From an uncultured Methanosarcinales archaeon (lineage in GTDB: Archaea; Nanobdellota; Nanobdellia; Woesearchaeales; CAZYIM01), in contig CAZYIM010000006.1 of assembly GCA_964647565.1 (NCBI GenBank), positions 25,045 through 89,044 on the forward strand: DNA of 64,000 bases, written 5' to 3'. How positions within the stretch are numbered: position 1 is the stretch's first letter; each line of letters starts with the position of its first letter. The position numbers were made by a program, and so were the translations under genes. A model generated the notes under the pieces. It saw only the letters and a list, made by a program, of their open reading frames with translations. It had not been told where the DNA came from and ran no database searches. This document shows positions 40,375-45,508 of this stretch, piece by piece.

Positions 40375-41157
40375 ATGACGAAATATGTGATTGAGAAGAC
40401 AAAATTTGGAAAAGTTATGGATAAAGTATTGATCGGATTAGGTATAGTTCTAGGCGTATACGTTTCTGCATTGGGCATCAAGAACAAGATAGAATACGAC
40501 GCTGCAGTTGAAAGGGTAATTGAAAGATCTGAAGGCCACAACATCATATTGACAGGAGAAGAGCATCACAACGGTCAGCACAAGAAGCTCATAGGCATGC
40601 TTGACGACTTCAAGAAAAAAGGAGTAAATGACCTTGCTATAGAAATAGACAGAGGATACCAATCAGATGTCGATGCATACATGCGAGGCGAGATGAGTTT
40701 TAAAGAGATGTGCATTCACAATATAAACTCCCCAGAATATATTTTCGAAGTTGTCAAGAAATGTAAAAAGCTGAAAATCAACGTACATTGTATAGACTAC
40801 AAACGAAAAGAGGCTTGGACATCCAGATATGGTGTCTTCATAGATCAACAAGGAACATACATCCGGGACAAGAAAATGTTTGAACAGCTAGATGAGCGGA
40901 TTTTCAGTAAAAATCCTGATGCTAAGTTGATATACTTCGGAGGTAGATGGCACATCCACAAAGAGCCATTGATCTGGAAAAGGCCAGCCACAGAAGAAGA
41001 AGCTAAGAAGTATGGAAGGACGTTTATTTATGCAGTAGAAGAAGCAGGTCCAGACACAACAATCGGCTGCTATTTGGCAGACAAAGGAAAAGTATTCTCG
41101 CTTTCTTTATTAGAGATGCAAGACAAGAAGACCATAGACATGGTCTTCGGCGAGTAA
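40375..41157 (+). CDS. membrane-anchored EreA/ChaN/Tiki-superfamily protein
   Basis: N-terminal transmembrane helix; GEEHH, LAIE, RDKKM, GGRWH motifs. Confidence 0.6.
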   Translation: MTKYVIEKTKFGKVMDKVLIGLGIVLGVYVSALGIKNKIEYDAAVERVIERSEGHNIILTGEEHHNGQHKKLIGMLDDFKKKGVNDLAIEIDRGYQSDVDAYMRGEMSFKEMCIHNINSPEYIFEVVKKCKKLKINVHCIDYKRKEAWTSRYGVFIDQQGTYIRDKKMFEQLDERIFSKNPDAKLIYFGGRWHIHKEPLIWKRPATEEEAKKYGRTFIYAVEEAGPDTTIGCYLADKGKVFSLSLLEMQDKKTIDMVFGE

Positions 41158-41257: not shown

Positions 41258-41313
41258 ATTTCTGAATAGTTCCTTACGCAATATTTATAAATAAGTCCTC
41301 ATCTTCTCGTCTT

Positions 41314-43371
41314 ATGGCAAAAAAGGGTGAGCTGGCTTTTAAGACTACAAAGGAGATTAAAGTTTCTAAAAAGATCGTCGACCAGGTCATAGGCCAGGAG
41401 GATGCTGTCAATCTTATCAGGAAGGCATCTGCCCAGAGAAGGCACGTCCTATTAATAGGTGAGCCTGGTACTGGAAAGAGCATGCTTGGCCTTGCATTGG
41501 CAGAGCTTTTACCAAAAGAGAAACTGGTAGACGTCCTAGCATTTCCAAATCCCAACGACGAGAACCAGCCTCTAATTCGCACTGTTCCAGGCGGCAAGGG
41601 CAGGGATGTTTCGATAAAAGCAAAACTACAGGGTGGCGGCGCCTTCAAGAACCAAAATATCCTTATGTTTGTGATTGCAATTGCAGCCATGCTAATACCC
41701 TGGTGGATCCGTACCAAATACAATTCTGATATCATGTTTGCGGCATTTTTCCTAGGAGGTATGATGTTTCTTGCTGCTTTCATAATATTCCTTAATCTTG
41801 GCAAGAGAATGGATAATAATAAGAATGGAGTGCCAAAAGTCATTGTCGATAATTTCAAGAAGAAACAAGCGCCTTTTTTAGATGCTACCGGAGCACATGC
41901 AGGAGCTCTTCTCGGCGATGTACTTCATGACCCGTTTCAGTCACTGGGAAAAAGTGATAGATTGACAATTCTCAACGATGATTATACCCTGAAATGTATA
42001 ACTGTGAACAAATTAATAGACTCGCTCATGGTAAAGAATAAAGAAAAAATCATAAAGAAAGCAAAGAACAACTATGAAGCCATCTTCCTTCCAAAAAACC
42101 AGCTTTTTATACTGGGAGAAAATAATGGCTTTGGGTCTGCTGTTGAGGTTTTATCATCCAACAGATATGATTACAAGGGCGAAATGATAAAACTCATAAC
42201 ATCTGAAAACAAAGAAATTATTATCACCCCCGAGCATAAAATAGCTGTTTGGAAAAATAATAAGATCACTTATATTGAAGCGAATAAAATAAAATCAGGA
42301 GATGAAGTTGTTGGAAAAGCAGAAGATATCATCATCGATGAACAGGACATCATCAACACATACAATGAAAGACAGCAAGAACAATGCAGATTATATTATC
42401 AATATTTGGAAACCAAAAAACAACATCCTGATTGGGGTTATAAGAGAATCGCCAAGGCAATGGACCAGCCAATAGGCAAGACCAGATGGTGGCATGCCAA
42501 AAAGCACATCCCTGTGCCAATACAGACAACCAACTGGCTGAAAGAAAAGGGCTTGCTGCCTCTAAAAACAAATAATCCTAAATTAGCATTAATATCAAAG
42601 GTTCTAGGAACAACATTTGGAGATGGAGGCATCTTTGAAAACCTAAATGGACTTTTCCTATCAAGCTCTGAGAAGGAAGCTGTAAAAGAGTTTGGAAGGG
42701 ATATTGAAAAAATCTTTGATTTAAAGCAAGATTCAAATTCAAGGATTATTGAAGGTGGAGAACATGGCCATTCATGGTGCTTCCAGAATACCAACAGAAA
42801 CATCATCAGATTTTTTCTTGCAGCAGGAGCTCCAAAAGGCAATAAGACCCAAATTCCCTTGAACATACCAGGATGGGTGAAAATTAATCAAAACCTGGAA
42901 GATGAATTCTTTGGCTCTTTATTTGGCAGTGAGATAGGCATTCCCAAGATTCATATAAGTGGAAAGCATACCAACACCTTTGATTTTGCCATCACAGGAA
43001 TAGAAAAAACCAAAAAAAACAGGCAGCAATTCTTGCAGGAGATTAAACAGTATCTAAATAAAAAAGACATTCAAACAGGCAAGTTCATCCAAAGCAGACT
43101 CAAAAATCAAAACACACTTTTCCGCCTCTTAATATCTATTAAATTTACAAACATGGCAACGTTCTACTCTATATGTAAATTGAATTACTGCAACTATAAA
43201 AAAAAGAAGCTAGAAAAATGCCTTAATGAATTCAGCCAAATTAAAAGAGACAGCTATGCAGAACTAATTAAAAGAGGCTATGGCGCTGAGCATGCCATGC
43301 ACCTCTTGAACCTTGATCCTACATCACTTTATATAATACTCAATTATGAAAAATTTGGTGAAACCGCATGA
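41314..43371 (+). CDS. lonB: ATP-dependent protease LonB, N-terminal precursor: N-extein (209 aa) + N-intein with LAGLIDADG endonuclease
   Basis: DQVIGQE, Walker A GEPGTGKS, two transmembrane helices, [11 protein letters not shown], then intein starting Ser at 41941. Confidence 0.92.
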
Positions 43372-43484
43372 AGCTTACTAGGCAAAAAATAAGTAAAGTT
43401 GAAAGGATCCCTTATAATGGAAAAGCCTATAACCTCACCACCAGCTCAGGCAATGTCATTGTTAATGGTATTCTATGTTCCAAC
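41941..43484 (+). mobile_element. split intein with homing endonuclease in LonB (N-part 41941-43368, C-part 43368-43484)
   Basis: Block A SLGKSDRL, block [18 protein letters not shown]-like [10 protein letters not shown] and FFGSLFGSE, block F AYNLTT, block G NGILCSN|S. Confidence 0.88.
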
Positions 43485-44747
43485 TCAGGAGGCCTGGGCA
43501 CACCTGCACACGAACGTATCGTTGCTGGAATGATACACAAGGCTCACATGGGAGTATTGTTTATTGATGAAATAGCCACGTTACAACCCGGAACACAGCA
43601 GGAGTTATTAACTGCAGTACAAGAAGGTAAATACTCGATAACCGGCCAATCTGAAAGAAGTGCTGGCGCCATGGTAAGGACAGAACCAGTTCCTTGCAGG
43701 TTCATCTTGGTTGCAGCAGGAAACATGGAGACATTAAAGAACATGCATCCAGCTCTCAGATCAAGGATCAGGGGCTATGGTTACGAGATCTATATGAAGG
43801 AGACCATCGAAGACAATGCTGAGAACAGAGAGAAGATTGCCATCTTCGTTGCTCAGGAGATAGTCAAGGATGAAAAGATACCTCATTTCTCAAGAGAAGC
43901 GGTTCTATATATAATAGAGGAAGCCAGGAAAAGAGCCAACAGGAAAGGTCACCTAACATTACGATTAAGGGATCTTGGAGGATTGATAAGAGCTGCAGGA
44001 GACATTGCCATGGAAGAAAAGGCCAAGGTTGTTGAGAAAAAGCATATCATACAGGCCAAGAAGGTTGCAAGAACTCTAGAGCAGCAGATTGCGGACAAAT
44101 ACATAGAACGTAAAAAGGAATATGAAGTTATTATTGTCAAAGGTAAGGCAATAGGACGAGTAAATGGTCTTGCAGTCATTGGAGGTGGAGGCAGCTACTC
44201 AGGAATCATTTTACCGATCGAGTCAGAAGTCACACCTGGCGGAAAGGAATCCGAGATCATAGCCACTGGAAAGCTTGGTGAAATCGCCAAGGAAGCTGTC
44301 AAGAATGTATCTGCTATAATCAAGAAATACTTTGGCTTGGACATCAAGGAAACTTATGATATTCACGTTCAATTTTTACAGACATATGAAGGTGTTGAAG
44401 GAGACTCTGCATCAATTGCAGTGGCAACCTCAATAATATCCGCCCTTAAGGGAATACCTATCAAGCAGAACTATGCCATGACAGGTTCACTCTCAGTAAG
44501 AGGGGAAGTATTGCCTGTCGGCGGAGTCAGCAGCAAGGTAGAAGCTGCAATAGACGCAGGCATGGAAAAGGTATTGGTTCCAAAAAGCAACCTTCAGGAC
44601 ATAATCATAGACAAGGACAGGATTTCCAGGATAAAAATAATACCAGTCGATACTATCATCGACGTTCTTAAAGAAGCTCTTGATTGGAAAGGCAAGGAAA
44701 AGATCCTAAAAAAGATCGTACATAGTTCTAAGAAGAGTCTGATCTGA
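43368..44747 (+). CDS. lonB: LonB C-terminal precursor: 39-aa C-intein + C-extein (Walker B and protease domain)
   Basis: [29 protein letters not shown], catalytic EGDSAS and GGVSSK; GGTGA SD at 43357 and ATGA overlap. Confidence 0.93.
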
Positions 44748-44749
44748 AT

Positions 44750-45508
44750 TTAAGAGGTCGCTGTCTTCCAGAGAGTGTTAAAAAACTTCCTAAATGAGTC
44801 TGCAGCTTCTAAATTCTTAACTCTTATGATTATTGGTTTAGATAGCAACATAATAAAATTCACTGTGTCTTTATAGAAGTTGAATTCAGCGAATGTATCC
44901 TGGTAAAGATATTTAACCTCGTGCAACTTGCTTTCTGAAGGATAACCCATTCGTTCCTTATGGCCCCTGACATTCTCATTAAATATTATCTTGATCTTAT
45001 ATCCCGCGTTTTCTACTTTTTTATAATATTGTGAAAAAAATATGTCTGCCTGTCTTGAAGCTTGTCCCATGCTTGCCCCAAAAATATAGTTTTCATCACC
45101 TTTTTTCAGAGTCCTGGCAATATCATAGAAAACTGTTTTCATACCTTCCCAACCATAGAACACCTCTACATCAGATTCTTCTTTGGTTTTCTGGAACTTG
45201 AGAAGCAGCTGCGGCATTATTTCGTCGACTACATGCTTCTCTTTTTGTAGTTCTTCCTCTTTCCTTTCAATAAAATCTTTTATCCTTTCTGGATCTGCAG
45301 CGCTAAAATGGATGACTCCTTGTTTTTTTACAGAGGAAATGATGCCTTTTTCAAGCAACCTGTTGGCAACATCATATATCTTTGAGGGCGAGATGCCTGA
45401 TTTCTTTGCCAGTTTGGTCCGCGTTGTTTCTCCCAATTCCAATAAGGCATCATATATCTTGATCTCACCATCTGTCAAGCCAACTCTCTTAAGCTCTATT
45501 AACTTCAT
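44750..45508 (-). CDS. TrmB-family transcriptional regulator
   Basis: GLTDGEIKIY.ALL, KIYDV..RL.EKGII, YGWEG. Confidence 0.88.
   Translation of the reverse strand: MKLIELKRVGLTDGEIKIYDALLELGETTRTKLAKKSGISPSKIYDVANRLLEKGIISSVKKQGVIHFSAADPERIKDFIERKEEELQKEKHVVDEIMPQLLLKFQKTKEESDVEVFYGWEGMKTVFYDIARTLKKGDENYIFGASMGQASRQADIFFSQYYKKVENAGYKIKIIFNENVRGHKERMGYPSESKLHEVKYLYQDTFAEFNFYKDTVNFIMLLSKPIIIRVKNLEAADSFRKFFNTLWKTATS

Follow-up and report, generated by a model that had tools for sequence, protein, structure and literature searches.

Can a protease whose gene is broken in its middle still be made as a single chain? This question is raised by a locus at positions 41314..44747 of the window (the whole stretch of 64,000 nucleotides (nt) analyzed here, located on contig 6 of the genome of a marine archaeon), where the membrane protease LonB is encoded by two overlapping genes and the break between them lies inside an intein. 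On the basis of sequence comparisons and structure models we consider it likely that the AAA+ module of LonB is interrupted here by an intein of class-1 type that is split by nature, and from the same evidence we infer expression and trans-splicing of the two products, translational coupling of the two genes, activity of the endonuclease and homing of the element. In the following, we describe the locus and its junction, the conservation of the break, of the splicing residues and of the endonuclease across related archaea, and the alternatives that have to be weighed against trans-splicing.

A LonB gene divided within its intein

The first open reading frame (ORF1; 41314..43371, forward strand, 685 amino acids (aa)) comprises 209 LonB residues followed by 476 intein residues, with an endonuclease in frame, and the second (ORF2; 43368..44747, forward strand, 459 aa) comprises 39 intein residues followed by 420 LonB residues. 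ORF1 matches the Pfam intein splicing domain PF14890 with 39.2 bits (cut-off 35.8) as well as P-loop families, and ORF2 matches Lon_C (E 1.2e-32), LonB_AAA-LID and, partially, AAA families covering the second half of the AAA module. The build of an archaeal LonB, i.e. an AAA+ module, a membrane hairpin and a C-terminal S16 protease domain, is thus present according to Pfam, spread over both ORFs. The frames of intein-less LonB relatives measure approximately 620-645 aa, the same two extein ends being joined in them without an insert, and the exteins of the split gene are colinear with these intein-less proteins. The parts of the locus are listed below; their coordinates were calculated from residue numbers and are approximate for both endonuclease motifs.

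41314..41940, forward strand: LonB N-extein (209 aa) with Walker A P-loop (P-loop matches at residues 16-84) and membrane hairpin, ending at the insertion site
41941..42363, forward strand: N-terminal splicing part, approximately intein residues 1-141, with Ser at position 1 (Pfam PF14890)
42226-42237, forward strand: block B Thr and His, intein residues 96 and 99 (from alignment conservation)
42364..43368, forward strand: LAGLIDADG part with flanking helical, probably DNA-binding, segments (AlphaFold, Foldseek)
near 42607-42630, forward strand: endonuclease motif 1, Asp at intein residue 228 (from aligned rows)
near 42907-42939, forward strand: endonuclease motif 2, Glu at intein residue 331 (from aligned rows)
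43357..43361, forward strand: Shine-Dalgarno-like GGTGA, 6 nt before the ORF2 start
43368..43371, forward strand: ATGA stop/start overlap of 4 nt between the TGA of ORF1 and the start of ORF2
43368..43484, forward strand: C-intein, 39 aa, net charge +5, terminal Asn
43485..44747, forward strand: LonB C-extein, 420 aa and stop, with +1 Ser, the Walker B half of AAA+, the AAA lid and the Lon S16 protease

An earlier, sequence-only reading of this DNA had described much of this arrangement, with ORF1 ending after the endonuclease and ORF2 opening with a basic C-intein of 39 aa, with the ATGA overlap preceded by GGTGA at 6 nt, with exteins of 209 and 420 aa adding up to 629 aa, and with Walker A in ORF1 but Walker B and the protease dyad in ORF2; all of this was confirmed by our analysis of the sequence and by the Pfam matches. 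Its remark that the overlap is in the style of other coupled genes in this DNA also holds. Overlaps of 4 nt between a stop and a start codon connect seven gene pairs in the window (24571, 33446, 34003 and 43368 on the forward strand; 51998, 21078 and 2560 on the reverse strand), and each of the seven shows an upstream Shine-Dalgarno-like word when a liberal pattern is applied. Translational coupling by such overlaps seems to be common in this genome.

With ORF2 as query we found no second LonB in the source genome, other matches being partial and 30-36% identical. A search of the genome with the Pfam intein family (in six-frame mode, below the family cut-off) retrieved this locus alone.

The junction in the window and in related genomes

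The frame of ORF2 carries a stop codon at 43359-43361, and the remaining frames upstream are closed by stops as well. Because of the stop in the ORF2 frame, an insertion or deletion fusing the two frames would be confined to the seven bases 43362-43368. Logan contigs from four sequencing runs of two studies were aligned to positions 42900-43900, and in three of the four runs contigs bridged the junction with no differing letter and no gap; one of these runs comes from a study other than the likely source of the assembly. The junction is identical in the contigs of this second study and is not an assembly error.

We scanned 401 genomes of the order with the 476-residue N-intein and obtained near-full-length matches in 21 of them, with E-values of 5.9e-129 or better. 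The open frames holding these matches all measure 680-737 aa, as expected for an N half ending behind the endonuclease. Two additional genomes, G349 and G286, match the first approximately 130 N-intein residues only, in frames of 360 and 358 aa that are without the endonuclease. Carriers thus amount to 23 of the 401 genomes and represent 15 family codes, and all 23 are broken at the same place. Neither of the sequence findings that were to count against the sequence-only reading, an extra base in the reads and close homologues that are all contiguous, was thus obtained. One carrier, G315 (locus L023), which is flagged as unpublished, was counted here and included in the trees, and was excluded from the model alignments; without it the counts are 20 and 22, still from 15 families. 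Weak matches to the endonuclease part, located within other proteins, were seen in 54 further genomes, among them the likewise flagged G131, which was not used. LonB itself was found in all of 40 relatives from the order, with 60-80% identity of the C-extein to ORF2 (73-77% for carriers), and three of these 40 (G013, G020 and G038) already display the two-gene layout.

Both halves are visible in 21 of the 23 loci; in the other two the contig or locus ends before the C half. Each of the 21 whole junctions contains a stop and then a start codon (ATG in 20, TTG in one), and the C-intein encoded downstream is 39 aa long in 20 cases and 37 aa long in one. The way in which the two genes adjoin each other is highly variable: there are twelve overlaps of 4 nt (eleven ATGA, one TTGA), one overlap of 11 nt, and gaps of 3, 14, 34, 224, 225, 325, 330 and 439 nt, so that all three frame offsets occur. 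The junction with the 3-nt gap consists of an in-frame stop, one codon and ATG. Of the 21 junctions, 12 have a Shine-Dalgarno-like word in the strict sense at -16..-4, ten of them being among the 13 junctions of the overlap type. With frame offset and spacing varying in this manner, the break must be regarded as a gene boundary of long standing and not as a recent insertion or deletion; junction diversity and Shine-Dalgarno-like words together indicate that the halves are two translation units.

The longer gaps hold foreign or remnant ORFs. An ORF of approximately 70 residues is intact in the gap of L016 (2902-3126), broken in that of L021 (minus strand, 224 nt) and represented by a short relative in L036, whose gap (minus strand, 439 nt) also holds an ORF that by eye resembles a MazG-type pyrophosphohydrolase and a small ORF. 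A Cys-rich ORF is located in the gap of L026 (2848-3172), and the gap of L037 (minus strand, 330 nt) contains the tail of a lost endonuclease and a helix-turn-helix-like ORF. The junction between the halves thus seems to be an insertion hot spot. In L036 (G349) and L037 (G286) the endonuclease has been lost and the N half ends 146 or 137 residues, respectively, into the intein; in L037, the last approximately 50 endonuclease residues survive out of frame. These two loci may be natural mini versions of the split intein, or one of them may be en route to decay.

A different, canonical and contiguous intein occupies the same LonB site in G011 (L003, minus strand). It has Cys at position 1, a penultimate His, a terminal Asn and another LAGLIDADG domain, and because it is of another type, at least two intein lineages use this LonB site in the order.

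Splicing residues, selection and predicted docking

Position 1 of the intein, which is Ser in the window, is occupied by Thr in nine, Cys in eight and Ser in six of the 23 members, with several different codons and variable neighbouring residues. The block B Thr and His are invariant (22 of 22 and 20 of 20 aligned rows, respectively), as are the terminal Asn and the +1 Ser (21 of 21). Among solved structures, the KlbA mini-intein of M. jannaschii (2jmz) was retrieved by a profile match with E 1.1e-10.

In eight pairs, nonsynonymous differences amount to 0.05-0.33 per site versus 0.47-0.94 for synonymous differences; synonymous sites are largely saturated, and selection is therefore shown qualitatively, with the proportions contrasted instead of dN/dS. 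The excess of synonymous over nonsynonymous differences holds for the N splicing part, the endonuclease (0.16-0.25), the C-intein and the exteins alike. All parts, including the LAGLIDADG endonuclease, thus look as if they were under purifying selection.

The C-intein carries a net charge of +2 to +7 (mean 5.0, n=21), and the last 18 residues ahead of the endonuclease carry -3 to -6 (mean -4.8, n=21). For contiguous relatives, the corresponding values are -4 to +4 for the last 39 intein residues (n=5) and -1 to -4 for the stretch before the endonuclease (n=4 locatable). Complementary charge of the two parts is described for natural split inteins in the part of Dassa et al. that concerns them (PMC2677866).

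We also predicted the complex of the N splicing part (153 residues, 22-row alignment) with the C-intein and 25 extein residues (64 residues, 20-row alignment). The complex score was 0.85 (median of three runs), and the best of three controls scored 0.00. Of 157 solved complexes 116 attain this mark, as do 2 of 215 mismatched pairs; these counts hold only roughly in this case because our own alignments were used. Contacts agreed between runs to at least 89%, the predicted local distance difference test (pLDDT) score of the partner was at least 66, and C-intein residues 1-40 all fall within the modelled interface. The model supports docking of the two intein parts.

A LAGLIDADG endonuclease on the N-terminal fragment

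The AlphaFold model of the 476-residue N-intein has a mean pLDDT of 86.5 and a predicted template modelling (TM) score of 0.73, with pLDDT values above 90 in the endonuclease part and of 61-85 in the incomplete splicing part. Foldseek matched this model to the TliVMA intein (E 1.5e-9), PI-PfuI, PI-TkoII and PI-SceI and to the free endonuclease I-DmoI; for I-DmoI and I-Tsp061I, TM scores normalised by target length are 0.62-0.68. No Pfam LAGLIDADG family matched ORF1 at E 0.01, and the endonuclease was identified by its fold. Across 20 aligned rows Glu 331 does not vary, and at least 90% of them have Asp 228. The endonuclease part thus has two LAGLIDADG motifs, each with an acidic residue, and in the model it shows the alpha-beta-beta-alpha-beta-beta-alpha double fold. 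It is in frame with the N-intein in 21 of the 23 members and lost in the other two.

Evidence for movement of the element

The LonB extein tree comprises 48 rows: 21 carriers in which both halves are visible, G011, and 26 genomes whose LonB has no intein. G032, nine of the 40 order relatives and the two carriers lacking a visible C half were left out. On this tree the carrier state changes 13 times, at least six changes being forced by well-supported branches; as 49 of 500 shuffles give a number equally low, clustering of carriers is not significant. Two pairs of carriers, each from one family, are sisters by their exteins (support 99), and their inteins fall into different well-supported clades. 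Approximately unbiased (AU) tests on the intein data reject keeping the pairs together (p = 1.1e-6 and 0.005), the groups having been named post hoc, after the tree had been seen. In three pairs, synonymous differences amount to 0.47-0.66 for the intein parts and to 0.71-0.82 for the exteins; small as the numbers are, the lower values of the intein would fit its later arrival.

The conflict between the intein and host gene trees suggests that the element still moves. Our reading is that the complete element, together with its break, is probably copied horizontally by its own endonuclease, for which the adjacent and colinear position of the two halves would be the prerequisite. A single ancient gain followed by losses alone may account for the scattered distribution of carriers; however, such a history leaves the conflict between intein and extein trees unexplained. 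Site-specific cleavage and homing by the endonuclease would be in keeping with this conflict and with purifying selection, the two observations from which we infer them.

Database relatives and origin of the break

A search of 5.8 billion proteins, in which 8000 candidates were scored, returned 237 matches at E 1e-10 or better. Among the best 120 of these, 114 proteins are 665-761 aa long, the length of a split N half, and four are shorter. The two longest, P0054 and P0118, were inspected and also end after the endonuclease of the split intein. Both have a second, contiguous intein with its own LAGLIDADG domain in the Walker A loop, and one LonB thus can apparently host a cis-splicing and a trans-splicing intein. 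In their source names the N halves are called "ATP-binding protein" or Lon-like protease and are assigned to Candidatus Woesearchaeota or Nanoarchaeota archaea. No contiguous member of the split clade was found within these best 120.

When 1.84 billion cluster representatives were searched exhaustively, 328 matches at E 0.001 or better were obtained. These include split N halves, which are 40-48% identical; LonB proteins of one piece whose intein is related and occupies the same site (P0130, P0139, P0144 and P0152, and partially P0132 and P0133; 30-38% identical); N halves of approximately 300-380 residues that end before the endonuclease; related inteins in other host proteins; and proteins of approximately 330-410 residues that match from about query residue 128 on, i.e. 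free-standing endonucleases. P0137, P0165, P0168, P0169, P0173, P0180 and P0181 have the size of a free-standing endonuclease and start approximately where the endonuclease part begins, and LonB N halves of approximately 340 residues stop just ahead of this position. Known as separate proteins only, these endonucleases and short N halves fit the existence of fully fractured LonB genes elsewhere.

An endonuclease-domain tree was calculated with a quick method from 52 rows and 300 columns, with no root inferred. In it the 24 split rows with endonuclease form one side of a branch (Shimodaira-Hasegawa-like approximate likelihood ratio test 94, below star level), and a group of contiguous LonB inteins adjoins them. 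This is compatible with a break that probably arose once from a contiguous LonB intein.

Proposed assembly of LonB by trans-splicing and its alternatives

According to the scenario that we favour, gene 1 would provide the LonB N-extein, the N-terminal splicing part and the in-frame LAGLIDADG endonuclease, and gene 2, which because of the ATGA overlap is probably translationally coupled to gene 1, would provide the short basic C-intein and the rest of LonB. The C-intein would dock on the N-terminal splicing part and complete the HINT (Hedgehog/intein) fold, whereupon Ser1, the terminal Asn and the +1 Ser would perform protein trans-splicing, yielding a LonB of 629 aa and a released two-chain intein-endonuclease. 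The break would have arisen in a contiguous LonB intein, probably once, and would have been kept across a large DPANN (Woesearchaeota-type) clade, in which the element's own endonuclease may copy it as a unit into empty LonB alleles. A natural split trans-splicing intein had been proposed in the sequence-only reading from this one locus, without mention of a whole family, of its probable horizontal movement or of the exchange of Cys, Ser and Thr at position 1, and the reads, the consistently split homologues, the varied junctions, the kept residues and the docking model now lend support to this proposal.

Several observations weigh against it. The penultimate His is absent, its position being taken by Ser in the window and by Lys (15 of 21) or Ser (6 of 21) in relatives, and this might mean slow C-terminal cleavage. 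The penultimate His (block G) is common in inteins but not obligatory, and inteins without it are reportedly able to splice; since contiguous relatives share its absence, this is a trait of the LonB intein lineage and no decay after the split. Thr occupies position 1 in nine of the 23 members. Thr at this position is chemically possible; a passage of one review, however, gives Cys or Ser only as first nucleophile (PMC4031507). In addition, the usual acidic residue of block F could not be assigned with confidence, the divergent G135 (L035) lacks the Asp of endonuclease motif 1, and G286 (L037) lacks part of the last strand before the endonuclease, the latter two being possible signs of decay. 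Split-intein complexes are present in the PDB, and the pass of our complex model may reflect likeness to these solved structures. Reads cover the junction at a depth of no more than approximately 3-4, and the assembly itself may derive from one of the runs. The saturation of synonymous sites and the post hoc choice of the AU groups belong on the same side.

The absence of the penultimate His would also be accommodated if the intein parts merely held the LonB halves together non-covalently, so that the protease would consist of two chains and no splicing would take place. The complex model supports an association of this kind, and there is a precedent in a fragmented phage ribonucleotide reductase, which reportedly is assembled without splicing (PMC3045599). 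We nevertheless regard such an assembly as unlikely: the position 1 nucleophile, the block B Thr and His, the terminal Asn and the +1 Ser have all been kept over deep divergence, and docking alone needs none of them; moreover, 515 aa would remain inserted between Walker A and Walker B of what we take to be a hexameric AAA+ ring. The same conserved catalytic residues make it very unlikely that the halves are no longer joined at all, with the N half persisting as a membrane-anchored, endonuclease-bearing remnant and the C half as an independent, ATPase-crippled protease. As Walker A and Walker B are on different halves, neither half has a complete ATPase site, and yet the exteins of carriers are conserved about as well as intein-less LonB, as judged by their identities to ORF2.

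Recoding, i.e. ribosomal frameshifting or stop read-through that would produce a contiguous precursor for cis-splicing, might be envisaged for the twelve junctions with a 4-nt overlap, and a minor fused product is possible where an in-frame stop and a single codon precede ATG. It is highly improbable as an account of the family, in view of the three frame offsets, the eight gaps of 3-439 nt, in which every frame is closed by stops and foreign ORFs occur, the start codon whose position is conserved in each of the 21 junctions, and the Shine-Dalgarno-like words in most overlap-type junctions. As a general mechanism frameshifting or read-through was thus rejected, the junctions being diverged and the gaps of up to 439 nt containing passenger ORFs. 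Finally, the LonB intein might in truth be contiguous, and the break be due to faulty assembly, to a recent frameshift or to decay into a pseudogene. One base inserted in 43362-43368 would indeed fuse the frames, and read depth is low; the probability of this explanation is nevertheless close to nil. The independent study yielded the identical junction, the same break recurs in every carrier of 15 family codes with varied junction designs, both halves appear to be under purifying selection, and the best 120 database proteins include no contiguous clade member. As far as sequence data allow, this explanation is refuted.

Comparison with known inteins

A passage of a review distinguishes full-length inteins with endonuclease, mini-inteins and split inteins (PMC7765530), and in the portion of Novikova et al. 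that treats these types a split intein is a mini-intein in two parts; ten LonB inteins are listed there, all from Euryarchaeota (PMC4760082). The usual definition of a split intein as a divided mini-intein does not describe the element reported here, as its N fragment carries a LAGLIDADG domain. The retention of a homing endonuclease on the N fragment is a departure from described split inteins. In literature searches by full text, from which subscription journals are largely absent, neither a split Lon or LonB intein nor an endonuclease-retaining split intein was found.

The closest parallels are the fractured genes of marine metagenomes reported in 2009 by Dassa, London, Stoddard, Schueler-Furman and Pietrokovski (PMC2677866; this comparison draws on the portions describing their gene arrangement). 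There, too, an enzyme gene is broken by a split intein, the halves have remained neighbours in the original order and orientation, the splicing parts are separated by an endonuclease region whose end overlaps the start of the downstream half, and the C-intein is short (33-54 aa, compared with 39 aa in LonB). In contrast to the LonB element, whose LAGLIDADG endonuclease is in frame, the fractured genes have a free-standing GIY-YIG or Vsr-like endonuclease gene, and whereas their hosts are enzymes of DNA metabolism, mostly at loci thought to be viral, the host here is a cellular archaeal protease. No free-standing endonuclease gene lies between the LonB halves of the 21 members with endonuclease. 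In one step of the model of these authors an endonuclease gene loses its flanks and comes to lie in frame within an intein (PMC2677866, in the section on this model). In the LonB layout, fusion has occurred at the upstream boundary whereas the downstream one is open, which resembles one half of this step or its reverse.

With the split inteins of cyanobacterial DnaE and of PolB of Nanoarchaeum equitans, as portrayed in the relevant parts of two publications (PMC2677866, PMC4031507), the LonB element shares two genes each encoding an extein and an intein part, a short C-intein and complementary charge. However, DnaE and PolB contain split mini-inteins without endonuclease whose halves are encoded at distant loci, whereas the LonB genes overlap and include an endonuclease part of 335 residues.

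Among contiguous inteins, the Lon intein of Pyrococcus abyssi is reportedly located at the same LonB site. The contiguous LonB inteins of P0130, P0139, P0144 and P0152 have the same host and site and a related endonuclease, and they share Cys, Ser or Thr at position 1, the terminal Asn, the +1 Ser and the lack of a penultimate His. They differ in being part of a single polypeptide of 1070-1159 aa, in their identity to the query of only 30-36%, and in that their equivalent of the C-intein is not consistently basic. TliVMA (7qsu), PI-PfuI (1dq3), PI-TkoII (2cw7) and PI-SceI (1vde) likewise are built of two parts, a LAGLIDADG endonuclease with two motifs being nested in a splicing domain (Foldseek E 1.5e-9 to 3e-5). 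Their sequence identity is 10-13%, and their C-terminal splicing strands are in the same chain.

Genomic surroundings

The source genome (G000; 2.68 Mb in 86 contigs, 87% complete) is the largest in a table with 40 order relatives, whose genomes measure 0.6-2.1 Mb, and it is the sole sampled member of its own family code. Immediately 3' of the LonB locus a convergent gene for a TrmB-type regulator is located on the minus strand (44750-45508), and a weak ChaN-like ORF (40375-41157) is located upstream; neither has an apparent link to the split LonB. Two antisense ORFs within the LonB N half (41274-41858, 194 residues, and 42438-42866, 142 residues, both on the minus strand) are most likely chance frames.

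Implications

The accepted categories of full-length, mini and split inteins, as given in the passage of the review cited above (PMC7765530), leave no slot for a split intein that keeps its endonuclease. Because contiguous cousins, cousins with a separate endonuclease and members that have lost theirs exist, the steps leading from a contiguous to a split intein can be compared and tested at the bench. The LonB element suggests that splitting need not end the mobility of an intein while its halves stay adjacent. A more far-reaching view would be that a still-mobile LonB split intein homes among DPANN archaea and its break is kept by selection, that Cys, Ser and Thr all work as nucleophiles, with the Thr members being the first natural Thr-initiated trans-splicing inteins, and that the contiguous, fully fractured and endonuclease-less relatives form a living series of split-intein origin; taken as a whole we offer this view tentatively and consider it rather doubtful.

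Cysteine-independent split inteins are rare and sought after, according to a passage on their use (PMC10189870). The LonB split inteins comprise natural Ser, Thr and Cys variants on one scaffold and come from non-thermophilic habitats. For the archaea concerned, the two-gene organization also means that annotation pipelines may score their LonB as broken. What such pipelines would be missing is most likely a family of natural split inteins in archaeal LonB that is large, old and probably still mobile.

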